64,000 bases of DNA, taken from contig JBMORX010000009.1 of assembly GCA_049322615.1 (NCBI GenBank), forward strand, positions 57,120-121,119. The letters run 5' to 3'. Below are positions 13,220 to 57,183 of this stretch, one piece after another. Under the pieces are notes generated by a model. It was given only the letters and a program-made list of their open reading frames with translations, had not been told where the DNA came from and did not search any database. Position numbers and translations under genes: made by a program. Each line of letters begins with the position of its first letter. Within the stretch, counting starts at the first letter, position 1. This DNA is from Patescibacteria group bacterium. GTDB lineage: Bacteria > Patescibacteriota > Microgenomatia > CAYGWK01.

Positions 13220-15330
13220 AGAGTTTTAAGAATAGCGCCAAATTTGCTTTTTACTGCGGAAATTATTTTTTCTCTTATTTTCTCTACCTCTTTATCGGTC
13301 AAAGTTTTCTTAGGGTGCTGATAGATAATTCTGAAAGTTCGAGTGTCTCCATGAATATCGATTAATTCAACACTTTGAATAATTGAACTAGACACTTTAA
13401 TTAATTGAAGTAGATCTCCAATTAAAGTCTTTGGTGGAACAACAAAAGCCAAATCCTCAACAATAGCAGGATATTTGGGAATGGGGGTAAAGGTTTTAGT
13501 TTTTTTGGCAAGTAAAATTAAAGCTTCAAAATCAAGGTCAAGAACAACCGTTTTGTTTAAAATTTCGAAATTTGCCAAAACCCGAGGGTTGACTTCACCA
13601 ATTGTTCCTAAGACATTATTGGTCGTTTCCATAACCGCTGCTTTTCCCTGGCTAAAATAGGGCTCTCTTCCTACCCAAGGCTTAAAATGGATATCCTCAA
13701 TTCCCAAATGCTCGAAAATAATCTCCGAGATGCCCTTTAAGTAGGAAAAGTCTTCCCCAGTTACCAAACAAGTAAGTCTGGTTTTTTCCAGAGGGAGATT
13801 TCCTTTTTGGGGAAGATAAACATTAGCCATCTCAAAAATTTTCACTTTGGGAAAATTGGCTTGGTTTTGGGCGACTGTTTTAAGCAGACTCTCAAGAAGG
13901 GAAATCCTTAAGTATTCAAGATCGCTGGTGAGCGGGTTTTTGAGTTTAAGATGGTCTTCGGTCTTTAGTCCAGTTTTTTGAATTGAGTCTTTTCCGATGA
14001 AGGAATAATTGTAAACTTCGGAGAAGCCTTTGCCAACAAGCACCTCTTTAATTTTATTCTCATATTCAAAGAACATCCCTATTTTTCCTTTTTGAGGTTG
14101 AGGTTGGGGTAAAAGACCGAACAAAGGATGAAGCGGAGGAATATTGCCGGGAAGTCTAAAGTAGCCATAGATTCTGGCGATTTCCTCAATTAAGTCTTCT
14201 TCGTGAGATATGTCTTGGGCGCGAAAGCTTGGAACGGAGAAAGTGAGAAGTGCCGTGCGTCGCCAGAGGCTACTCGCCGTTGCGTAGCCACGCTTTGGCG
14301 GAGCGCGGTGCCGGCGGCGCGAGAAATGAGAAGTGAGAAGTGAGAAGCCAAGAGATTCAAGGATACTGATGATTTTATTCTTTGGAATTTCGATGCCGAT
14401 GATTTTATTGACTAAATCAAGATCCAGTTTGATTTTTTTGCTTTTTTGGGGATTAGGATAAATATCTATTAATTTACTGGCGACCCTTCCTTGGCAGAGG
14501 TCTTCCATTAGCTTTACTCCTTGAGAAATGACAGGAATAATTCCTTCTAAATCAATCCCTCTTTCAAATCTCACCGCTGCCTCGGTCCGGTGAGCCAGAG
14601 CCATCGACGTCTGTCTGATTCTGACGGGATTATAAGCCTGAACGAAGAAAAGGACTCTTTTAGTGTTTTCGTCTATTTGGCTATTTTCCGCACCCATGAT
14701 ACCGCAAAGATCAATTAATCTTTCTTTTCCATCCTCGATAACGATATCTCCACCTGGAAGGGTCCGGGTAGCCCCATCGAGAGTGGTAATTTTTTCTCCT
14801 GGTCGTGACAGCCTCATAATCATTTTTGCCCCAAGAATTTTGTCGTAATCAAAAGTATGGATTGGTTGTCCGGTTTCGATCATTAAATAATTGGAAATAT
14901 CAACCACATTGGAAAGTGGTCTGATGCCAACTTTTTCTAATCTCTCAGCCATCCATTTTGGAGAAGGGGCAACCTTTACCTGGTCGATAACGACAGCAGA
15001 AAACCGAGGACAGAGAGTCTCATCTTTGATTTCTACGGAAAGATTAAATTTTGGATTTTTCATCTCTAGAGGAAGAATCTTGGGTGATGCAAATTCCGCT
15101 TTTATACCGTATCCTGAAAGAGCCGCCGCCGCTTCCCGGGCGATGCCGCGAACCGATAAACAATCATAGCGATTGACAGTTATCTCGATTTCCAAAATCT
15201 GGTCATCTTTTTCCGAATGGATTTTTTCCACTGATTGGCTACAAAGAGAAAGAACTTCAGCCACCTTCTCTGGGCTTGCTTCAGTTTTAAGAAAGTCTTT
15301 CAACCAAGAAAAAGGAATAAGAATATTCAT
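13216..15330 (-). CDS. pheT: phenylalanine--tRNA ligase beta subunit carrying an in-frame 37-aa insertion encoded by a GC-rich repeat
   Basis: B3/B4, B5 and FDX-ACB-like blocks; lies downstream of pheS; insertion at 14237-14348. Confidence 0.88.
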   Translation of the reverse strand: MNILIPFSWLKDFLKTEASPEKVAEVLSLCSQSVEKIHSEKDDQILEIEITVNRYDCLSVRGIAREAAAALSGYGIKAEFASPKILPLEMKNPKFNLSVEIKDETLCPRFSAVVIDQVKVAPSPKWMAERLEKVGIRPLSNVVDISNYLMIETGQPIHTFDYDKILGAKMIMRLSRPGEKITTLDGATRTLPGGDIVIEDGKERLIDLCGIMGAENSQIDENTKRVLFFVQAYNPVRIRQTSMALAHRTEAAVRFERGIDLEGIIPVISQGVKLMEDLCQGRVASKLIDIYPNPQKSKKIKLDLDLVNKIIGIEIPKNKIISILESLGFSLLTSHFSRRRHRAPPKRGYATASSLWRRTALLTFSVPSFRAQDISHEEDLIEEIARIYGYFRLPGNIPPLHPLFGLLPQPQPQKGKIGMFFEYENKIKEVLVGKGFSEVYNYSFIGKDSIQKTGLKTEDHLKLKNPLTSDLEYLRISLLESLLKTVAQNQANFPKVKIFEMANVYLPQKGNLPLEKTRLTCLVTGEDFSYLKGISEIIFEHLGIEDIHFKPWVGREPYFSQGKAAVMETTNNVLGTIGEVNPRVLANFEILNKTVVLDLDFEALILLAKKTKTFTPIPKYPAIVEDLAFVVPPKTLIGDLLQLIKVSSSIIQSVELIDIHGDTRTFRIIYQHPKKTLTDKEVEKIREKIISAVKSKFGAILKTL
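14237..14348. repeat. GC-rich 74-nt hairpin core flanked by GAGAAGT/GGGAAGT heptamers, in frame in pheT
   Basis: core gtgccgtgcgtcgccagaggctactcgccgttgcgtagccacgctttggcggagcgcggtgccggcggcgcgag matches 56210-56312 exactly by eye; nested palindrome GGCTAC..GTAGCC. Confidence 0.85.
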
Positions 15331-15331
15331 T

Positions 15332-16366
15332 TTAAAATTGGTTAATAAATCTTAAATCAGGTTCATACAGGGGTCTTATGTCCGAAAGATTAAGTCCTGA
15401 TTTCATGAAATATGTTCTTTCCACCCCCCAGCCAAAGGCAAACCCAGAGTATTTTTTAGGATCGATACCGCCGTTTTTGAGAACTTCGGGATGAACCATA
15501 CCCGAACCCCCTAGCTCATGCCAACCACTTTTGCAAACTTTGCAGCCTCTTCCCAAGCAAAGAGGACAGTTGATATCTACCTCAAACGATGGCTCGGTAA
15601 ATTGAAAATGGAAGGGTCTAAGTCTTATTTTCCTTTTAGGACCGAAGAAATTTATGGCGAAGTAGTCAAAGACCCCTTTTAAATGAGTAATATTAATTCC
15701 CTCATCGATGACTAACCCTTCAAACTGATGAAAGGTTGGGGTATGGGTAGCATCCCAATTAGGACGACCACAGCGACCAATATTAATCATTCTTATCGGA
15801 GGTTTAACTCTTTGCATCTCTCTAAGTTGTCCCGAAGAAGTATGGGGAGTAATCACCATTTGTCCGTATTTGGGACTGGCTTTTTCTTCAATGAAAAAAC
15901 TTTCATAGTCGTCTCTAGCGGGATGGGTTTTGGGCATATTGAGACCATCGAAAGCGTACCATTCCCATTCAACCTCTGGATAACTGACTCGAACAAAACC
16001 GATTTTCTCCAAAACAGCGGAAATTTCTCTGATGGCTTGGGTGAGAAGGTGAAGGTGTCCTTGATCTAGTTTTTCTCCTGGTGCGGTGACGTCAAGCCAT
16101 TCCCTTTCAAACTCTCCCATTTTTTCTTGGAGTTTACCCTGAGCTTGCCGAAGGGTTTCTTCGATCGCTTTTTTGGCATCATTGGCCAGCCTGCCAACGT
16201 CAACCCTTTTTTCTAAGGGAATTCTGGGAATTTCTTTAATTATTAAAGTGAGTTTTCCTTTTCTGCCGAGATAAGCCTGACGAAGTCTTTCTAATTCTTC
16301 TTGATTTTTAGCGGAAACTATTTGAGCCAAGGCTTCATTTTTAAGATTTAAAATCTTTTCTTCCAT
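15332..16366 (-). CDS. pheS: phenylalanine--tRNA ligase alpha subunit
   Basis: class II motifs including GFAFGWGVER; 344 aa. Confidence 0.9.
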   Translation of the reverse strand: MEEKILNLKNEALAQIVSAKNQEELERLRQAYLGRKGKLTLIIKEIPRIPLEKRVDVGRLANDAKKAIEETLRQAQGKLQEKMGEFEREWLDVTAPGEKLDQGHLHLLTQAIREISAVLEKIGFVRVSYPEVEWEWYAFDGLNMPKTHPARDDYESFFIEEKASPKYGQMVITPHTSSGQLREMQRVKPPIRMINIGRCGRPNWDATHTPTFHQFEGLVIDEGINITHLKGVFDYFAINFFGPKRKIRLRPFHFQFTEPSFEVDINCPLCLGRGCKVCKSGWHELGGSGMVHPEVLKNGGIDPKKYSGFAFGWGVERTYFMKSGLNLSDIRPLYEPDLRFINQF

Positions 16367-16550
16367 AAGGCTATTATATACTAAAAACCTCCCTTTTAGG
16401 GAGATTCTTTTTGCGTTTTTGCGGTCCTAAAAATGCCAAAACCAACCTCCCCTTGGGCTTAAAGTGTCCTAAAGAAAAATGACACTTTGTCGGGGTTGGT
16501 TGGTCTTCGCATTGGAAATTATTATAGCAGACTATTTGAGCCTGTCAAGA
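16367..16550 (-). promoter_or_regulatory. pheST promoter plus leader-peptide transcription attenuator
   Basis: on the minus strand: TTGACA, 16 nt, TATAAT; leaderless ORF; long hairpin with FFF codons in its loop; a second hairpin CTCCCTAAAAGGGAG followed by TTTTT just before pheS. Confidence 0.7.
16459..16512 (-). CDS. Phe-rich leader peptide MRRPTNPDKVSFFFRTL (pheM-like)
   Basis: 17 codons plus stop, three consecutive Phe codons TTT TTC TTT, sits inside the attenuator. Confidence 0.6.
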   Translation of the reverse strand: MRRPTNPDKVSFFFRTL

Positions 16551-16575
16551 GGCAATTTACTCGGCGAATCCAGGA

Positions 16576-16618
16576 TAGTCCTGGAATCCTACTTGACACA
16601 GGATAATCCTGGGTTTTA
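16576..16618. repeat. REP-like element family A (paired hairpins CCAGGATAGTCCTGG), left flank of transposase 1
   Basis: palindromic units; the same family recurs at 17278, 24046, 26245 and 57032. Confidence 0.8.
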
Positions 16619-16629
16619 GAGTAGAGTTA

Positions 16630-17286
16630 GTGGTGCAGTATTATCATCTTTATAACCGCGGTGTAGACAAACGGGTTATTTTTCTTGACGATACTGATAG
16701 ACAGCGATTTCTTGATGCTGTTAGGTTAGCAAGACTTTCGAATTCGCCCAGGCTTTCTTGGTTAAAAAGACAAATTAAAATTGGTAACATTTCTCCAACA
16801 CACCTTGAAAAATTGGAAGAAAAATATGGACCACCTCTTTTAGATATCGTTACCTACTCTCTAATGCCTAATCACTTCCACTTTCAAGTTAAGGAACTGA
16901 TAGAAGATGGAGTGAGTCAGTTTTTTCGAAAACTGGGAACAAGCTATGTAATGTATTTTAATATTAAACACGAAAGAACAGGACGATTGTTTGAATCCCA
17001 ATATAGGTCTGTGTTAATAGGAACTGACGAGCAATTAATTCACCTTTCTCGTTATATCCATACCAATCCTTACAATTCTTCCAAGAGAGACATTTCTCTT
17101 GAACAACTAAAAACTTATTCTTGGACGAGTCTCCCTGATTATCTAGGTACTCGTAAGCAGCCATTTTGTGACCCTACGGAAGTTATGTCATTTTTTAACT
17201 CACCTGAAGATTATTGGGAATTTTTAAAGGGAAATATTGATAAAGAAGAAGTTTTGCCCCCCGAGCTACTACTCGATCCAGGATAG
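16630..17286 (+). mobile_element. IS200/IS605-type HUH Y1 transposase, REP-associated (RayT-like)
   Basis: HUH motif LMPNHFHF and a downstream Tyr (RYIHTNPY); 218 aa; REP-A copies on both sides. Confidence 0.8.
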
Positions 17287-17326
17287 CCCTGGATTCGTGC
17301 CTAGTCCAGGATAGTCCTGGATTTTT
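17278..17326. repeat. REP-like element family A, right flank of transposase 1
   Basis: ccaggatagccctggattcgtgcctagtccaggatagtcctgg. Confidence 0.8.
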
Positions 17327-17654
17327 GGGTGATGGCTTTGAAGGTCTCTGGATCGGAGATTGCCAAGTCGGCGAGGATCTTACGGTCAAGGTCAATTTTT
17401 GCTTTTTTGAGACCCGAAATAAAACGACTATAAGAAATTCCTGATTCCGAAAGTCTGGCGGAAATTCTTGTTATCCAAAGTCTTCGGAAATCTCTTTTCC
17501 TTAATTTTCTGCCAGCAAAAGCATATTCACCCGCATGAAGGACCGCCTCTGAAGCCGGCTTTAAGAGTCTATGCCGAGTCATTCTATAGCCACGAGCTCG
17601 ATGTAAAATCTCTCTGTGTTTTCGGTGGCGGTATGGTCCAGTTTTAACGCGCAT
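17301..17654 (-). CDS. rplT: 50S ribosomal protein L20
   Basis: MRVKTGPYRHRKHREIL... typical L20 sequence. Confidence 0.93.
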   Translation of the reverse strand: MRVKTGPYRHRKHREILHRARGYRMTRHRLLKPASEAVLHAGEYAFAGRKLRKRDFRRLWITRISARLSESGISYSRFISGLKKAKIDLDRKILADLAISDPETFKAITQKSRTILD

Positions 17655-23894: not shown

Positions 23895-23935
23895 ATTCTA
23901 TTTTGGGTTTTCTTCGGATATAGTATAATAAAATA

Positions 23936-24853
23936 ATGAGACTGTCAAGAAAAGAATTAAGAAAGAGAGCACAGAAAGCTTGGAAACTTCTAAATCCTTG
24001 TCGGGTTTGTCCGAGGATTTGCGGGATCAACCGTCAGAGGCCAAATTCCAGGATAGTCCTGGAATCGTGCCTAGCCCAGGATAGTCCTGGATTTTGTCGG
24101 ATGGGGGTAAAACCACGGATAAGTTCCTATCATGCCCATTTTGGCGAAGAATCTTGCCTTGTCGGTACAAATGGTTCAGGAACAATTTTCTTTTCCTCTT
24201 GCAATCTTGCCTGTGTTTTTTGTCAAAATTGGGAAATTTCCCAATTGAGAGAAGGAGAGGAAGTGGAAACTGAGGATTTAGCTGAGATGATGGTTTTTCT
24301 TCAAGAGCGTGGTTGTCATAATATAAATCTTGTCTCCCCTACTATTTGGGTGCCCCAGATTCTGAAGGCTTTGGTGGTTGCAATTGATCAAGGATTACAC
24401 CTCCCATTGGTTTATAACACTGGTGGATACGATTCAGTTGAGACCCTAAAACTTCTTGATGGGGTTATCGATATTTATATGCCAGATATTAAATATTCAG
24501 ATTCAAAAATCGCCCTGAAATATTCCCTGGTTCCAAACTATTGGAAGGTGGTTCAGAAAGCAGTTGCCGAAATGCATCGCCAGATTGGAGATTTGGTGAT
24601 TAGTGACCAGGGACTAGCGACTAGGGGTTTGTTAATCAGGCATTTGGTTTTACCAGAAGGTTTAGGGGGAACAGAAAAAGTGATGAAATTTATCGCCTCT
24701 CTCTCCAAAAATTCTTATGTCAATATTATGGACCAATACTATCCAACCAATAAAGCCCATCTTTATCCGGAAATCAATCGAAAAATTACTCCCGAAGAAT
24801 ATCATAAAGCGGTTGAAACAGCTAAAGGGTATGGTCTGCACCGATTTAATTAA
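23936..24853 (+). CDS. radical SAM enzyme (PflX / AmmeMemoRadiSam-like) with an in-frame REP-A insertion near the N-terminus
   Basis: CNLACVFCQNW CxxxCxxC motif; N-terminal CxxCPRxC..GFC pattern interrupted by 15 aa (NSRIVLESCLAQDSP) encoded by REP-A at 24046-24092. Confidence 0.75.
   Translation: MRLSRKELRKRAQKAWKLLNPCRVCPRICGINRQRPNSRIVLESCLAQDSPGFCRMGVKPRISSYHAHFGEESCLVGTNGSGTIFFSSCNLACVFCQNWEISQLREGEEVETEDLAEMMVFLQERGCHNINLVSPTIWVPQILKALVVAIDQGLHLPLVYNTGGYDSVETLKLLDGVIDIYMPDIKYSDSKIALKYSLVPNYWKVVQKAVAEMHRQIGDLVISDQGLATRGLLIRHLVLPEGLGGTEKVMKFIASLSKNSYVNIMDQYYPTNKAHLYPEINRKITPEEYHKAVETAKGYGLHRFN
24046..24092. repeat. REP-like element family A copy in frame inside the radical SAM CDS
   Basis: ccaggatagtcctggaatcgtgcctagcccaggatagtcctgg. 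Confidence 0.8.
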
Positions 24854-26209: not shown

Positions 26210-26244
26210 TACTATGTAGCGATGAAAAAATGATTCCAGTAATT

Positions 26245-26287
26245 CCAGGATAGTCCTGGAATCGTGCCTAACCCAGGATAGTCCTGG
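26245..26287. repeat. REP-like element family A copy, followed by 3 tandem copies of CTGGATTTGCA
   Basis: ccaggatagtcctggaatcgtgcctaacccaggatagtcctgg. Confidence 0.8.
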
Positions 26288-26344
26288 ATTTGCACTGGAT
26301 TTGCATACTGGATTTGTAAGGTGGCGTTGGTGCGGGGTAAAGCC

Positions 26345-44767: not shown

Positions 44768-44851
44768 TGGCGGAATCGGTATACGCGCAACACTTAAAAT
44801 GTTGTGGGTGTAAAATCACCCATGAGGGTTCGAGTCCCTCCTGGCCCACCA
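44761..44851 (+). tRNA. tRNA-Leu(TAA) with encoded CCA
   Basis: acceptor GGGCTAG/CTGGCCC, anticodon loop CTTAAAA, long variable arm, T loop TTCGAGT. Confidence 0.8.
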
Positions 44852-44852
44852 T

Positions 44853-44926
44853 CGGGGAGTAGCTCAGTTGGTTTAGAGTGCGCGCTTTGGGAGCGTGAGG
44901 CCGGCGGTTCGAATCCGCCCTCCCCG
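44853..44926 (+). tRNA. tRNA-Pro(TGG)
   Basis: acceptor CGGGGAG/CTCCCCG, anticodon loop TTTGGGA, T loop TTCGAAT. Confidence 0.8.
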
Positions 44927-44991
44927 ACCCTTCGGCTTCGCCTCAGGGCAAGCTGAAAAATGTTTACACCGAACCCGCTAAGGCGGGTGAG

Positions 44992-45204
44992 GTGCGGGTG
45001 TAGTTCAGTTAGTAGAACGTCTCCCTTCCAGCCCGAAAAATCGCCTTCGGTGATTAACGGGCTAGGCACGTTAATTTGTGCGGGAGTAGCTCAGTTGGGA
45101 GAGCGTCTCCCTTCCAAGGAGAAGGTCGCGAGTTCAAATCTCGTCTCCCGCTCACAAATTTTACGTGCCAAGGAGAAGGTCGTGGGAGCAAGGCCCATCA
45201 CCCG
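44992..45204 (+). pseudogene. decayed tRNA-Gly(TCC) split in its anticodon loop (5' half 44992-45028, 3' half 45166-45204) with an intact tRNA-Gly(TCC) embedded between the halves
   Basis: outer acceptor GCGGGTG/CACCCGC perfect and anticodon stems intact; outer T loop degenerate (AGCAAGG); CCA duplicated at both junctions; inner gene bounded by the inverted repeats GCACGTTAATTTGTG / CACAAATTTTACGTGC. Confidence 0.65.
45078..45150 (+). tRNA. tRNA-Gly(TCC)
   Basis: acceptor GCGGGAG/CTCCCGC, anticodon loop CTTCCAA, T loop TTCAAAT. Confidence 0.85.
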
Positions 45205-45232
45205 CTCAAGTTTACTCCGAACGAATGTGAGG

Positions 45233-45333
45233 AGCCCCTGTAGCTCAATGGATAAGCTGGCTTTTCAAGCCATCTTAATCCGCAAGGCGGATTAAGCGAG
45301 CTTGACCATTTCGCACAGTGGCTCGCGATGCTC
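45233..45333 (+). pseudogene. tRNA 5' fragment duplicating the first 25 nt of tRNA-Arg(TCT), followed by the hairpins TTAATCCGCAAGGCGGATTAA and GCGAGC..GCTCGC
   Basis: GCCCCTGTAGCTCAATGGATAAGC versus the intact GCCCCTGTAGCTCAATGGATAGAGC; anticodon region non-canonical. Confidence 0.55.
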
Positions 45334-45406
45334 GCCCCTGTAGCTCAATGGATAGAGCGGGTCGGTTCTAACGACTAGGTTGGGGGTTCGACTCCCTCCA
45401 GGGGCA
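45334..45406 (+). tRNA. tRNA-Arg(TCT)
   Basis: acceptor GCCCCTG/CAGGGGC, anticodon loop GTTCTAA, T loop TTCGACT. Confidence 0.8.
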
Positions 45407-45422
45407 CCCTTCGATAAACCAT

Positions 45423-45498
45423 GGTGGTGTTAGCTCAAAGGTAGAGCGTCGGCCTGTGGAGCCGAATGTTGCGGGTTCGAATCCCGTACACCACCCCA
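45423..45498 (+). tRNA. tRNA-His(GTG) with encoded G-1 and CCA
   Basis: G-1 pairs with C73; acceptor GTGGTGT/ACACCAC; anticodon loop CTGTGGA. Confidence 0.85.
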
Positions 45499-50507: not shown

Positions 50508-53456
50508 TTATCTTAGAATTTCTCTTAAAAATTGTCCAGTGTAGGAGTTTTTAGCCCTCGCCACATCCAATGGTGTTCCGCTGGCGACAATATAGCCTCC
50601 TTTGTCTCCTCCTTCAGGACCAAGATCAATTATCCAGTCGGCGTTTTTAATTACATCAAGATTGTGTTCGATAATGACGACCGTATTGCCTAAACTAACC
50701 AGTCTTCGCAAAACATTTAAAAGTTTCTCCAAATCAGCAAAATGAAGCCCGGTCGTTGGCTCATCCAAAATATAAAAAGTTTGACCAGTGGCTCTTTTCC
50801 CAAGTTCTGCGGCAATTTTGACTCTTTGCGCCTCACCTCCAGAAAGTGTCGGCGCCGGTTGACCAAGATGAATATATCCTAAACCGACGTCAGAGAGAGT
50901 TTTTAGTTTTTCGAAAAGACCAGGAATATTTTTGAAAAATTCTAAAGCCTCCTCTACTGTCATCTCCAGGACTTCAGCAATATTTTTACCCTTAAAGGCG
51001 ACTTCAAGAGTTTCCGAGTTATATCTTTTTCCTTGGCAAACTTCGCAATTAACATAAACATCAGGTAAAAACTGCATTTCTATTTTAATCTGCCCCTCGC
51101 CTTGGCAGGCTTCACACCGACCATTTTGGACATTAAAAGAAAACCTTCCAGGCTTATACCCCCTTATCTTTGCCTCAGGTAGCTGGCTGAAGAGGTCACG
51201 AATGTAGGTAAAAACACCGGTATAAGTGGCTGGATTTGACCTTGGAGTTCTACCAATTGGTGATTGGTCAATCAAAATGACCTTATTGATAAATTCTCCC
51301 CCCTTAAGACCCCCAAATTTACCTGGTTTTTCTTTATGAAAGGGGTGAAGTTGCTGCGCTAGAGCATGATAAAGAGTCTCAACTACCAAAGTTGACTTCC
51401 CTGAACCTGAAACTCCAGTGATACAAATAAATTTCCCCAAAGGAAAGGTAACGTCGATATTTTTAAGATTAAACTGGGAACACCCTAACAAAATCAGGTT
51501 TTCCTTCTTGCACCCCTGGGGTGAAACAGCCTCACACCTGCGGAAATTGTTATTCTCAATTTCAATTCTTTTTCTTCCCGCCAAATAGTCTCCTGTTAAG
51601 GAATAGTGGTTGGTCTTTATTTGCTGAACAGTTCCTTCTGCCACGATCTCGCCCCCATGATCACCAGCCCCAGGACCGAAATCCAAAATCCAGTCGGCTG
51701 ATTCCATCATTTCTCGGTCGTGTTCAACGACAATCACCGTATTTCCTAAATCGCGAAGTCTTTTTAAAGTCTGGATTAATTTTTTATTATCCCGCTGATG
51801 GAGTCCAACCGATGGTTCATCTAAAACATATAAAACTCCAGATAAACCCGAACCTATTTGGGAGGCAAGCCTGATTCTTTGACCCTCACCGCCAGCCAAA
51901 GTAGCCGAAGGTCTATCCAAAGTTAAATATTCAAGCCCAACGGATTTCAAAAACGAAAGTCTTTCTCTTATTTCTTTTAAAATTGGATTGGCAATTTTTA
52001 ATTCTTTTTCGGAGAGTAATTTTTGAGTTTCCAAAAGCTCAATCCACCCCAAGGCTTTGTCAATAGAGAATTGAACAACATCGACAATCGACTTTCCTTC
52101 AATGGTTATTCCTTGTGATTCTCTCTTAAGGCGACTACCTTGGCAGGTTGGACAAATTTCCTGCCTCATATATTTTTCAATTTCTTGCCGGACAAAGTCC
52201 GATTCAGTTTCGGAAAATTTTCTCTCAAGTTCAGGGATTACTCCAGGATAAACTTCATAAATTGAGGTCATTCTGCCATAACGGTTTTCTCCCTCAACTC
52301 GCCAAACTTCGTCACCTGTTCCATAAAGTAAAACTTTCTTTTGTTCCAAAGATAAATTTCCCAGAGGCGCATCAAGCCTTATTCCATATTTTTGGCAGAC
52401 AGTTTTTGCAATCCTTGAGAACCAGGTGTCGTGAAAAAACATTCTGGCAAAAGGCAAAATTCCCCCTTCATTTATGGTTAGCCGGGGATTAAGCAAAAGT
52501 TCGGGGTCAACCTTCAAAAGCGCCCCTATTCCTGAACAAGTTGGACAGGCGCCGTAAGGAGAATTAAAAGAAAAAGTTCTTGGTTCAATTTCCGGTAAAG
52601 AGAGATTGCAGGTTGGACAAGCAAATTTTTGGGAAAAAAGATGGTCTTCCATTTTCTTTGGTTTTTCCGGGAATTCAAAAGAGGCATCCTTAACTTGAGA
52701 AAGAATCACCAAACCATCAGATAATTTTAAGGCTTGTTCAACCGCATCAGTAATTCTCGTTTTGAGATTTGAAAAAGAGACAGGGTCTTTTATTTGACTT
52801 TTCTCAAGAGAAATTCGGTCAATCACAACTTCAATTGTATGTTTATTGGTCTTAATTAAAACCAAATCTTCCGAGAGTCCAAAAACTTGACCATCAATTC
52901 TGGCTCGGGTAAATCCTTTAGACTGAAGATTTGTGAAAAGTTGGCTAAATTCGCCTTTTCTGGATCGAACAACCGGAGAAAGAATCAGAAATTTAACCAC
53001 TTTAAATGATTGAAGTGCCACTTTAATTAATTGAAGTACCTGATCGACTATTTGTTGAGAACTCTGCTGACTGATTTCCTGACCGCAAGAAGGACAATGG
53101 GGATGACCCACTCTGGCAAAAAGAAGTCTTAAATAATCATAGATTTCCGTAACCGTGCCGACAGTTGAACGCGGGTTATGAGAAACGCCTTTTTGATCAA
53201 TGGAAATTGCTGGCGAAAGTCCTTCGATTAAGTCAACATCTGGTTTATCCATTACCCCCAAAAACTGGCGAGCATAGGCAGAAAGGCTTTCAACGTATCT
53301 TCTTTGCCCTTCAGCATAAATAGTGTCAAAAGCCAAAGAAGATTTTCCACTGCCGGAAATTCCCGTAAAAACCACCAGTTTATTCTTGGGAATCTCAACA
53401 TTGATGTTTTTAAGATTGTGTTCTCGGGCTCCTTGGATGACAATTTTTTCGTTCAC
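50508..53456 (-). CDS. uvrA: excinuclease ABC subunit A with a ~15-aa in-frame REP-B insertion
   Basis: two ABC ATPase modules ([10 protein letters not shown]; [10 protein letters not shown]) and zinc-finger Cys clusters; insertion [15 protein letters not shown] at 51507-51546. Confidence 0.9.
51507..51546. repeat. REP-like element family B (TTGCACCCCNGGGGTGA...ACACCTGCGGA), in frame inside uvrA
   Basis: same family as 54147-54186 and 54861-54902. Confidence 0.8.
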
Positions 53457-54084: not shown

Positions 54085-54146
54085 ATCTTTAAAATATCAT
54101 ACAACTTGACTCTTGGTCAATATTTCCGTAATCTTGTCCCTTACCC

Positions 54147-54186
54147 TTGCACCCCCGGGGTGATATGGCTTCACACCTGCGGATAA
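54147..54186. repeat. REP-like element family B copy, flank of transposase 2
   Basis: cttgcacccccggggtgatatggcttcacacctgcggataatcg. Confidence 0.8.
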
Positions 54187-54821
54187 TCGATTAATTGATG
54201 CTTGATTACCTCTAGCTGTTTTCCATAGTCCTCTTGATCATAAACAAATTTTTTATATTCATCTACCGATTTAAACTGGCTTAACACTATTTCTTTATGG
54301 CAAAGATTTTTATTGGTAGCTCCTAAATATTCCTTGAAAGAGGAAAAATCATACGATTCTAAAGACTTCACAATATATCCAACAAGTGGATTAAGATGAA
54401 TATATCGAGATAAATGAACAAGTTGCTCGTTGGTCTCGATATGTACTGCTTTAAACTCTCCTTGAAAAATTGGCCCATTCCTCTTGTACTTAGTGTTAAA
54501 GTATTTTGTGTAACTGTTACTTAGTTTACTAATAAATTCGGTTATTCCACCCTCTCTTACTTGTTGAAGAAGAAAATGAAAATGGTTAGGCATTAAGCAG
54601 TAGCAAACAAAATAGATTATTTTCTTTGTTGAGTTAATAAGCTTGGTGGATGGACTAAAAAAAGAAAATCTCGGTTTTGGATCTTCTATTTGGTAATAAA
54701 GCATTGTTTTTATAAATCGCTGGTGATCTCTATACCGAGTAAAAATAGGCATTTGAGCTATACCACGATTTAAAATATGATAGTATTCTCCATCGACAAA
54801 AGGCATTATCCTTGAAGGCAT
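54171..54821 (-). mobile_element. IS200/IS605-type HUH Y1 transposase, REP-associated (RayT-like), second copy
   Basis: YCLMPNHFHFLLQQ HUH motif and the Tyr region LSRYIHLNP; flanked on both sides by REP-B. Confidence 0.8.
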
Positions 54822-54860
54822 ATATCTATTAAATCACAAATAACCGAGGGTGTAAAGCTA

Positions 54861-54902
54861 TTGCACCCCAGGGGTGAAATACGAACACACCTGCGGATTA
54901 AG
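54861..54902. repeat. REP-like element family B copy, flank of transposase 2
   Basis: ttgcaccccaggggtgaaatacgaacacacctgcggattaag. Confidence 0.8.
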
Positions 54903-54906
54903 AGAC

Positions 54907-57003
54907 TTAACTAGCCGTAATTTCCTTAATCTTGTCCCTAATTTTGGCTGCGAGTTCAAAGTTTAGATCGCGAGCTGCTTCTTTCATTTCTTTGGTTAAG
55001 CGCTTGACTAGCCTTAGGCGATCTTCAGGTGTCAGTTGTCCAGAATCAAGATGTTTAAGTTCTGACAAAGCAGATTGATAACTTCTGATTCCGAAAATAA
55101 ATGGGTCTATTCTTTCTTCGCGGACTACCAGTTTTTCCCTAATTGGCTTTTGAATACTCCGAGGAGTAATTTTGTGTTTTTTATTGTATTCAAGTTGAAT
55201 GTTTCTTCTCCGGGAAACTTCAGCGATTGCCCGCTTCATTGAACCAGTCAGATTATCAGCATACATAATTACCTGTCCATTTATATGCCTAGCTGCCCGA
55301 CCCATGACCTGAATCAAAGAGGTTTCTGAGCGCAAAAACCCCTCTTTATCCGCATCTAAAATTGCCACCAAAGAAACTTCGGGCAAATCAAGTCCTTCTC
55401 GTAAAAGATTAATCCCCACCACCACATCATATTTTCCCAAACGCAAATCATCTAAAATATCAGACCGGTCAAGAGTCTGGATCTCTGAATGAAGGTAATG
55501 AACTTTTACCCCTTTTTCCTGAAGATATAAAGCCAAATCTTCAGCCATTCTTTTAGTTAAAGTCGTTACCAGAACCCTTTCTCTCGCTTTGACCCTTTTG
55601 TCTATTTCTAAAATCAAGTTATCAATCTGTCCCTCAGTTTTCTTAATGGAAATCTCTGGGTCGGGAATTCCAGTTGGGCGAATAAGTTGTTCCACGGGCT
55701 TGCCAGTTTTTTCAAGTTCCCAGTCTGCTGGGGTGGCTGAAGTATAAATTGTTTGGGGAATCCTCCTTAAAAATTCTGCAAATTTCAGAGGTCGGTTATC
55801 TAAAGCCGCCGGCAGTCTAAACCCAAATTTGACCAAGGTTTCCTTTCTTGAGCGGTCGCCATTATACATCCCTTCAATTTGGGGAATGCTCATGTGCGAC
55901 TCGTCAATAAATAAAAGCCAATTATTCTGGTAAGGCTCTTTAAAATAATCAAGTAAAGTGTAGGGTGGCTCGCCAGGTTTTCGACCATCAAAATAGCGAG
56001 AATAATTTTCAACCCCATTGACATATCCAGTTTCTTCAATCATCTCCAAATCATAATTCACTCTTTGTTCTAAGCGGTGAGCCTCAAGTATCTTTCCTTG
56101 GGAACGGAGTTCTCTAAGTCTTTCTTCCAGATCTTTCCTTATTTCCACAAAAACATCTGAAAGACTGGCTGGATCAGTCATATAGTGTTTGGCAGGATAG
56201 ATTAAGACAGAAGTGGGAAGGGCGAAGTGCCGTGCGTCGCCAGAGGCTACTCGCCGTTGCGTAGCCACGCTTTGGCGGAGCGCGGTGCCGGCGGCGCGAG
56301 AAGTGGGAAGAATTTTGCCATTTAGGGGATCTATTTTGGCGATTTTCGTAATCCTCTCTCCCTCCATTTCAATTCTGACAGCCACATCTTCGTAGGCTGG
56401 GAAAATGTCAATCGTGTCTCCTCTGACTCGGAAAGTGCCTCGGTGAAAACCATAGTCTGCCCGATCGTATTGAAGACGGGTAAGCCTTCTTAATATTTCC
56501 TGGCGATCAATTTTTTGTCCAATTTCTACTTCTAAAACAAAATGTCCATATTCTCTGGGCGAACCAAGGTTATAAATACAAGAAACTGAAGCAACAATGA
56601 TGGTATCTGGTCTGGTTAAAATATTGGTCGTAGACTCCAGTCTTAATTTGTCAATTAATTCATTTATTTCTGTTTCTTTTTCAATATAAGTGTCGGTTTG
56701 GGGAATATAAGCCTCGGGTTGATAATAATCATAATAAGAAACAAAGAAACAAACCGCGTTCTCGGGAAAGAAATCGCGAAATTCTTGATAAAGCTGGGCG
56801 GCTAGGGTTTTGTTATGAGAAATAACCAAAGTCGGTCGTTGCAGTTTGGCAATGACATTAGCCATGGTAAAAGTTTTTCCCGAACCAGTTACCCCAAGTA
56901 AAACTTGATGTTTTTCCCCAGCCCGAATTCCGGTCACCAATTTCTCAATCGCCTCCGGCTGGTCTCCGGTGGGTTTAAAAGTTGAATGGAGTTTAAATTC
57001 CAT
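54907..57003 (-). CDS. uvrB: excinuclease ABC subunit B carrying an in-frame ~34-aa insertion encoded by the GC-rich 74-nt core
   Basis: [10 protein letters not shown] Walker A, helicase motifs, C-terminal UvrB/UvrC interaction helix; insertion at 56210-56312. Confidence 0.9.
56210..56312. repeat. GC-rich 74-nt hairpin core flanked by GGGAAGT heptamers, in frame in uvrB
   Basis: core identical to 14250-14323; the frame of insertion differs from the pheT copy. Confidence 0.85.
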
Positions 57004-57031: not shown

Positions 57032-57090
57032 TCCAGGACTCTGATTCCAGGACTATCCTGGAACAGGCACGAATCCAGGACTATCCTGGA
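57032..57090. repeat. three REP-A hairpin units (inverted orientation) in the divergent uvrB-lexA promoter region
   Basis: ccaggactctga / ttccaggactatcctggaa / tccaggactatcctgga. Confidence 0.8.
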
Positions 57091-57183
57091 TCACCCCCAG
57101 CTTTGCCAAGGCTTCGGCGAGGTCTGCGTCCCGATAAAAATCGGGACTTGACATTTGGGTTTTCTTCGTATTATGATTAAACC

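Follow-up and report, generated by a model that had tools for sequence, protein, structure and literature searches.

The closest described counterparts of the system discussed here are enzymes of the RayT (REP-associated tyrosine transposase) type and the repetitive extragenic palindromic (REP) sequences that accompany them, where the stated rule is that each such Y1 gene has its own repeat (PMC6006769). Table 1 of that paper supplies the criterion that separates class 2 (RayT-type) enzymes, with a Y---NP motif, from IS200 enzymes, with Y---Q. The same paper reports TnpA-Y1 subclass 2.1 without REP-like sequences nearby and equates it with TIRYTs. Head-to-tail REP dimers and self-complementary terminal inverted repeat (TIR) families have been described before (PMC3733652), and REPs inside genes are also documented. 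Here we analyze a 64,000-nucleotide stretch (the window) of contig JBMORX010000009.1 from a Patescibacteria group bacterium, in which a RayT-like Y1 gene is bracketed by doublets of a short hairpin that we call REP-A.

Patescibacteria have small, streamlined genomes and are usually called poor in mobile DNA. In full-text literature searches, we came upon no account of REP/RayT systems from the candidate phyla radiation. A first-pass annotation of this DNA, made from the sequence, had given proteobacteria as the setting in which these systems are described; such systems are not confined to that group. We consider it probable, at roughly 0.78, that the locus is a REPtron-like unit, that is, a chromosomal gene for a RayT/TnpA-Y1 class 2 enzyme whose cognate hairpin, REP-A, stands in head-to-tail doublets on both sides of it. 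The main rival of this reading is an IS200-like element with derivatives resembling miniature inverted-repeat transposable elements (MITEs).

The Y1 gene and the REP-A hairpin

The gene, its promoter-like site and the copies of REP-A in the window are as follows.

16566..16616, plus strand: left REP-A doublet, with hairpin 1 at 16570-16584 (exact) and hairpin 2 at 16598-16612 (2 mismatches)
16593..16622, plus strand: promoter-like site of the Y1 gene, TTGACA-18 nt-TAGAGT
16630..17286, plus strand: Y1 HUH (RayT-like) gene, 218 aa, GTG start; in the protein, HUH = H82-F-H84 (HFH at 82-84), Tyr = Y142, Y motif = YIHTNP
17274..17324, plus strand: right REP-A doublet, with hairpins at 17278-17292 and 17306-17320
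24044..24094, plus strand: radical SAM REP-A doublet, in frame within the PflX-like gene 23936-24853
26241..26291, plus strand: solo intergenic REP-A doublet, with a CTGGATTT half-unit tail at 26292-26302
57032..57093, minus strand: uvrB-lexA REP-A copy, a doublet at 57043-57093 plus a half unit at 57032-57041

The Y1 protein passes the Pfam model Y1_Tnp (PF01797; 25.6 bits, cut-off 23, E = 1.4e-5). In an alignment of 101 homologues, N81, H82, H84 and Y142 alone are invariant, and H144 and N146 are near-invariant (N146 conserved in at least 90%), which yields the motifs NHFH and YIHTNP; in a family profile, the HUH and Tyr line up with the HUH and Y132 of ISDra2 TnpA. The AlphaFold model is confident (predicted local distance difference test, pLDDT, 93), and its top fold match in the PDB is 4er8, E. 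coli RayT with a REP hairpin (E = 2.8e-6), followed by the TnpA proteins of IS608, ISDra2 and IS200. The 29 best matches (E up to ~3e-3) are all RayT or IS608/ISDra2/IS200-family Y1 transposases. Pfam finds no helix-turn-helix (HTH) or DnaA_C domain at the C terminus. An identical protein, P0001, is annotated “MAG: transposase [Patescibacteria group bacterium]” (MAG, metagenome-assembled genome), and the window itself derives from a Patescibacteria MAG. The family is large, with 4,166 clusters at 50% identity at E <= 1e-30 and 22,933 at E <= 1e-10, and has at least 535 relatives among GTDB species representatives; the 80 loci listed of these mostly bear named Patescibacteria (Daviesbacteria, Beckwithbacteria, Levybacteria and others) or placeholder MAG names.

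Such a fold would also be expected if the whole ~760-bp unit were an autonomous IS200-like insertion sequence (IS), with the subterminal hairpins as its ends and the solo doublets as MITE-like deletion derivatives that join a left-end and a right-end hairpin; indeed, the IS608, ISDra2 and IS200 enzymes are matched too. We regard this alternative as unlikely overall, and several properties of the gene speak against it. The motif, Y142-I-H-T-N146-P, is of the Y---NP type (class 2, RayT) and not the IS200 Y---Q in Table 1 of PMC6006769. At 218 aa, with a conserved C-terminal extension, the protein is longer than IS200 TnpA (about 150 aa). No tnpB-like open reading frame in the window's list adjoins the gene, there is one copy of this gene type in the window, and no near-identical gene copies were seen. 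Finally, the gene is under strong purifying selection: dN/dS between relatives is 0.03-0.11 over saturated synonymous divergence, and the locus is syntenic with that of relative L002.

The hairpins form a compact and highly nonrandom family. Searching the 64-kb window for the 15-mer CCAGGATAGTCCTGG with up to 2 mismatches gave 10 matches, versus 0.07 expected, and none of 100 shuffles reached 10. All 10 pair into five doublets of ~47-51 nt, each with two hairpins in the same orientation at a 28-nt period. The stem is CCAGGA/TCCTGG and the loop TAG. Folding of the doublets as single-stranded DNA gives, for each strand, two separate hairpins of 6-9 bp whose loops are 3 nt long (z -3.4 to -5.5 versus shuffles). 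The copies at 24044 and 26241 are 98% identical. Among the copies, the spacer TCGTGCCT is conserved, and the three bases 5' of hairpin 2 vary freely; the feet are AATT, GAAT or CGAT ahead of hairpin 1 and GCCT+NNN ahead of hairpin 2. The left doublet departs from this pattern in its degenerate hairpin 2 (ACAGGATAATCCTGG) and in a spacer unlike that of the dispersed copies, which holds the -35 box of the Y1 gene. The Y1 gene takes up 1% of the window, and two of the five doublets are no more than 110 nt away from it, a proximity with a binomial P of about 0.002. That a doublet, not a single hairpin, stands at each end of the unit is a further point against an IS200-like element. GC skew in the window tracks gene strand, not replication, and switches twice in the 64 kb.

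Most of what the first-pass annotation had said of this core holds. Its IS200/RayT HUH and Tyr motifs in 16630..17286 agree with the Pfam and fold results and with the 101-sequence alignment, from which the catalytic Tyr, as Y142, is nowhere missing. The paired palindromes that it saw around the gene are the doublets at 16566 and 17274, REP-A is enriched near the gene, as it supposed, and its intergenic copy near 26245-26287 is the doublet at 26241-26291. Its left boundary, 16576, needs correction, since the left doublet begins at 16566 and its first hairpin at 16570.

The left doublet also appears to serve as a promoter. Its hairpin 2 fills the spacer between the -35 and -10 boxes of the Y1 gene, and the start codon follows 7 nt past the -10 box, which implies that the mRNA is probably leaderless. 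The same layout is present in L002, L003, L087 and L091, and a strict test finds it in 11 of 84 loci versus 10 of 1822 shifted controls. This arrangement suggests, from sequence, that the Y1 enzyme controls its own transcription. It also fits a different proposal, in which the hairpins are regulatory or structural elements of the host (operators, RNA stabilizers or terminators), the Y1 protein has some other role on single-stranded DNA, and their sharing reflects regulation, not mobilization; hairpin 2 occupies the promoter spacer in several lineages, and a TnpA-Y1 subclass with similar motifs, 2.1, is reported without REPs and with function unknown (PMC6006769). We think this proposal very improbable. 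There is no T-run 3' of the REP-A hairpins, no copy is scored as an intrinsic terminator, and the hairpins match no Rfam family.

A known RNA family was considered separately and rejected: Rfam scans of the whole window at gathering thresholds, and of 16300-17400 at E <= 1, returned tRNAs and one chance miRNA match. The Y1 unit as a whole lies between rplT and a terminator-like hairpin at 16389-16403, next to pheS, and the stop codon of the Y1 gene is the TAG in the loop of the first right-doublet hairpin. The ~200 bp between pheS and the unit (16367-16565) are missing in relative L005. On the minus strand they have a perfect promoter (TTGACA-16-TATAAT with TG, 16548->16521), and they also include a nested hairpin at 16441-16510 (CCAACCTCCCC...GGGGTTGGTTGG) and the terminator-like hairpin; no Rfam match was obtained. 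Ahead of pheS, this segment might serve as a leader or a small RNA.

Gene-hairpin association and filled and empty sites among relatives

The association of gene and hairpin extends across the family. At 43 of 82 homologous loci, nearly all from Patescibacteria, the same perfect hairpin stem occurs on each side of the gene at a distance of up to 300 nt; among shifted controls, placed 2.5-8 kb away at the same loci, 0 of 424 have a stem on both sides. The sequence of the flanking hairpin is specific to the lineage, with compensatory changes on both arms of the stem, and it varies with the protein:

window and L087: hairpin CCAGGATAGTCCTGG
L002 (85% protein identity): hairpin CCAGGTTAGTCCTGG
L003 (77% protein identity): hairpin CCAAGGACAGTCCTTGG
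L093 (75% protein identity): hairpin CTAGGATTATCCTAG
L091 (57% protein identity): hairpin ACACACATTTAATGTGTGT

Throughout this series the layout is constant: doublet, gene, doublet, with the -35 box in the left spacer, hairpin 2 between the -35 and -10 boxes and the right doublet at the stop codon. The REP-A doublet itself is 93-97% identical between genomes whose Y1 synonymous sites are saturated, as recognition by the Y1 enzyme would maintain.

The window also contains a second unit of this kind:

54146-54897, minus strand: second REPtron-like unit, with a Y1_Tnp gene at 54171-54821 (216 aa, 33% identical to the first)

On either side of this gene lies a hairpin of another family, CACCCCNGGGGTG with CACACCTGCGG, in keeping with the rule of one repeat for each such gene. 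A third copy of its hairpin lies at 51507-51544, in frame within uvrA, where it adds about 9 residues in a linker relative to the UvrA structure 2r6f.

Comparison of relatives reveals both filled and empty sites. L005 is syntenic with the window from pheT to the second radical SAM gene. There, pheS and rplT are 68 bp apart with no gene between them, the radical SAM loop that carries a REP-A doublet in the window is uninterrupted (NR-QKDERT-GFC), and CCAGG-N5-CCTGG is absent from all 12.3 kb of L005. In L002 the Y1 unit is at the same pheS|rplT site as in the window, and in L087/L088, L003, L093 and L091 it lies in other genomic neighborhoods. Exact REP-A doublets also occur alone, in unrelated contexts, on three Joint Genome Institute (JGI) metagenome contigs, often with the CTGGATTT half-unit tail; none was found in GTDB representative genomes. 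The doublet at 26241 is placed where synteny with L005 ends, and a tblastn search with the HhH-GPD neighbor of L005 found no match in the window; thus, this copy marks a synteny break, not a truncated gene. A phage origin was tried and rejected, with 0 REP-A doublets and 1 distant Y1 homologue in 2.9 million viral contigs.

These observations bear on both alternatives. A unit that is present at one site in the window and L002, missing there in L005 and elsewhere in L087, L003, L093 and L091 is what an IS200-like element would produce. The same alternative gains from the DNA of the REPtron region, which at 75-78% identity is somewhat better conserved than the flanking housekeeping genes (65-72%), and from the position of the hairpins in relatives, mostly at gene ends and with few dispersed copies. 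Conversely, the unit is not in viral contigs. For hairpins as host regulatory elements, the scarcity of dispersed copies in most relatives is likewise favorable. The empty site in L005, together with copies in frame in coding DNA and at a gene 3' end, is insertion behavior, however, and identical doublets recur in unrelated contexts and other metagenomes, both of which argue against regulation as the reason for the sharing.

Several findings also weigh against the REPtron-like unit that we favor. The GT[AG]G tetranucleotide is absent at the feet of the REP-A hairpins on both strands. The doublets are direct, not inverted, with TAG loops on the same strand and two separate hairpins. Copy number is modest, with three dispersed doublets in 64 kb. 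A dispersed hairpin copy is found within +-10 kb in only 6 of the 43 related loci, so that in most relatives the hairpins may just mark the ends of the gene unit. PDB sequence searches, by single sequence and by profile, reach ISDra2 TnpA alone, weakly, and miss E. coli RayT, which is found by fold only. The protein also does not pass NCBIfam NF047646 (REP_Tyr_transpos), scoring 27.1 bits against a cut-off of 80, so that of the profile searches proposed by the first-pass annotation, the one with Y1_Tnp gave a match (25.6 versus 23) and the one with a RayT model stayed below its cut-off. What stands of that annotation is its core, a RayT-like Y1 gene with its own hairpin repeats and with copies in coding and promoter DNA; the absence of GT[AG]G, the direct doublets and the low RayT score set the system apart from a canonical RayT/REP pair.

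REP-A and other inserts in host genes

The radical SAM gene carries a REP-A doublet within its reading frame. The family has four invariant cysteines, C22, C25, C29 and C54, and the doublet is placed between Cys29 and G52-F-C54, read in the sole stop-free sense frame of three. The REP encodes about 16 residues (NSRIVLESCLAQDSPG). The net gain relative to the empty-site orthologue is 12 aa (18 versus 6 residues between NR and GFC), less than the number encoded because native codons were replaced. The Cys29-GFC loop has 22 residues in the window protein, versus a mode of 10 among 113 homologues, in which it is 9-12 aa long in 92 and 15-28 aa long in 15. In the structural model, residues 38-52 have pLDDT below 50, and the insert loop is predicted to be disordered. 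The claim that REPs invade coding sequence is upheld by this in-frame copy and the empty site in L005; the placement between the N-terminal Cys motif and the GFC motif was also right, and the 15 added residues first counted become ~16 encoded and 12 net.

Other lineages carry unrelated short in-frame inserts in the same loop, such as TLRQAQGKL and KTGGPAPRSPERSRGG (window 24027-24092; homologues P0124-P0130, P0157, P0169 and P0225), which marks the Cys29-GFC loop as a hot spot for insertions. P0122/L004 has a diverged doublet with the same right junction. When positions 198-240 of L004 are compared with 24048-24090 of the window, the loop of hairpin 1 is inverted (CCAGGACTAACCTGG versus CCAGGATAGTCCTGG) and hairpin 2 is unchanged, which suggests a loop flip within the palindrome.

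At the other end of the Y1 unit, rplT (L20, 17301-17654) ends within the right doublet, from whose minus strand come its final 7 codons (KSRTILD) and its stop; the first-pass annotation had mentioned neither this nor the Y1 stop codon in the same doublet. In L002, L20 extends through about 24 REP-encoded residues, and in L005 it ends normally.

In the uvrB-lexA spacer, the REP half unit stands in place of the uvrB -35 box, which is AGGACA in L017 and L019; uvrB retains an extended -10 box, TGATATAAT. The spacer contains no LexA box of the Cheo, E. coli, alphaproteobacterial or cyanobacterial type, although the host's own motif may differ. TTYGGGT-N3-TCTTYG recurs as a conserved element between the -35 and -10 boxes of lexA (window 57154-57169, L017 16055, L019 12805) and also upstream of the PflX-like radical SAM gene (window 23902-23917, L004 ~55, L005 ~7672). 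It reads TTTGGGTTTTCTTCG at both window positions, 57154 and 23902, is not palindromic and repeats TTYGG about 11 nt apart. A weight matrix built from the six sites has strong matches in the window only at 57154 and 23902. A shared 15-mer of this sort could by itself be chance, and we keep it as a lead only in view of its conservation at the two promoters in other genomes. We regard the element as a candidate operator that may be the LexA site of this lineage; 60 nt separate it from the REP. The first-pass annotation had counted three REP units in this spacer, sitting where a LexA box would be expected; there are two full units and a half unit (57032-57041), no known box is present in the spacer, and the candidate operator at 57154-57169 falls outside the REP, so that the LexA suggestion lacks support.

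Other repeats in the window were also observed. A 93-nt GC-rich element occurs at 14241-14333 in pheT and at 56218-56310 in uvrB, the two copies being 96% identical. It is flanked by short tandem repeats (GAGAAGTG/GGGAAGTG) and folds as a long hairpin (-39 kcal/mol). The element is in frame in two essential genes, yet is read in different frames, and its UvrB copy corresponds to ~32 aa (residues 233-264) with no aligned counterpart in solved UvrB structures. At the DNA level, it has the appearance of a third mobile-insert family. Two repeat pairs bracket a DUF3800 gene (41796-42554): one is the hairpin CACCTCGGGGGTG (41551 and 42813), the other a 62-nt AT-rich palindromic repeat (41660-41721 and 42877-42938); GC content is low (0.33-0.34), and the region 41551-42938 may be another mobile cassette. 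Finally, 11 tRNA genes cluster on the plus strand at 43539-45495, with tRNA-like fragments as repeat families at 44186-44216 and 45151-45207.

A possible mechanism and comparison with known systems

If the locus is a REPtron-like unit, its workings can be sketched by analogy with IS608 TnpA and E. coli TnpA-REP. The Y1 enzyme would recognize the hairpins when they are extruded on single-stranded DNA and would cleave beside them through a phosphotyrosine link at Tyr142, with a metal ion held by H82 and H84. Cleavage is predicted near GCCT and the 3 variable nucleotides 5' of hairpin 2, and 3' of CCTGGATTT. Rejoining of the strands could then excise doublets of 47-62 nt or copy them to new sites. 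The copies seen today would be the insertions that the host tolerated: intergenic, in the radical SAM loop predicted to be disordered (and there in the one frame that is open), at the rplT 3' end and in front of uvrB.

A REPtron-like unit here would have several implications. First, it would extend REP/RayT biology to a major uncultured radiation. Second, the window holds at least two Y1/hairpin systems that look active from sequence, and three short-repeat families in frame within essential genes. Third, the data suggest that a Y1 subclass thought to lack REPs has cognate hairpins. Fourth, a 15-nt hairpin, a 47-nt doublet and a 218-aa enzyme would make compact substrates for biochemistry. Lastly, the unusual C-terminal tails and inserted loops that conserved proteins have in these genomes would be accounted for, and generic “transposase” annotations here would denote something other than ordinary insertion sequences. 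A broader idea, which we hold tentatively and at slightly less than even odds, is that a large, Patescibacteria-centered Y1 clade with the subclass 2.1 signature constitutes a distinct set of REPtrons across the candidate phyla radiation, with GTAG-less, lineage-specific direct doublets, a hairpin embedded in the -35/-10 spacer of a leaderless promoter, which would suggest self-regulation, and repeats repeatedly fixed in frame in essential genes (L20, UvrA, radical SAM) of reduced, ~1-Mb genomes.

The comparison with known systems is mixed for each of them. With IS200/IS605 elements (IS608, ISDra2), the system shares the catalytic fold, the HUH and Tyr chemistry, subterminal hairpins on one strand at both ends, and a whole unit that is present or absent and repositioned between relatives. 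Unlike them, it has a longer Y---NP enzyme without tnpB, doublet ends, a gene that is single-copy in the window, and solo doublets dispersed without the gene.

TnpA-Y1 subclass 2.1 (Bertels group 1) is similar in protein length (about 220-240 aa) and, by motif comparison only, in its conserved residues: the family consensus is NHFH/LFQG/YIHLNP/WSS, versus the signature NH[YF]H/FQ/Y[IV]HLNP/SS, and the window protein itself, again by motifs only, has NHFH, LFES, YIHTNP and WTS. It differs in that the subclass is reported to have no REP-like sequences nearby, whereas REP-A doublets flank the Y1 gene. TIRtrons and their TIRYTs are alike in having some self-complementary TIRs, which make up small families of dispersed dimers (PMC3733652, PMC6006769). 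However, TIRYT repeats share GGGGWSAS, and the GGGG motif is absent from REP-A; nor does Pfam find a DnaA_C/HTH-like C terminus in the Y1 protein. With the REPINs of Bertels and Rainey, the resemblance is that the doublet is the repeated unit, in five of five cases in the window and in all metagenome copies; the difference is that the REP-A hairpins are direct and do not pair into one long hairpin.

From the REPtrons of E. coli (yafM/4er8) and the RAYTs of Pseudomonas and Stenotrophomonas, the system differs in the missing 5' GT[AG]G guide tetranucleotide, a protein far below the NCBIfam RayT cut-off, a short and perfect stem (6-8 bp) with a 3-nt loop, direct doublets with a fixed 28-nt period and the TCGTGCCT spacer, modest copy number and a patescibacterial host. 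It resembles them in its Y1 HUH enzyme with Y---NP, whose closest fold match is theirs, and in the placement of a low-copy chromosomal gene between copies of a short hairpin repeat of its own. As in those systems, further copies of the repeat are dispersed and mostly dimeric, the genome has another gene of this kind paired with a different repeat family, and repeat and enzyme co-vary between lineages.

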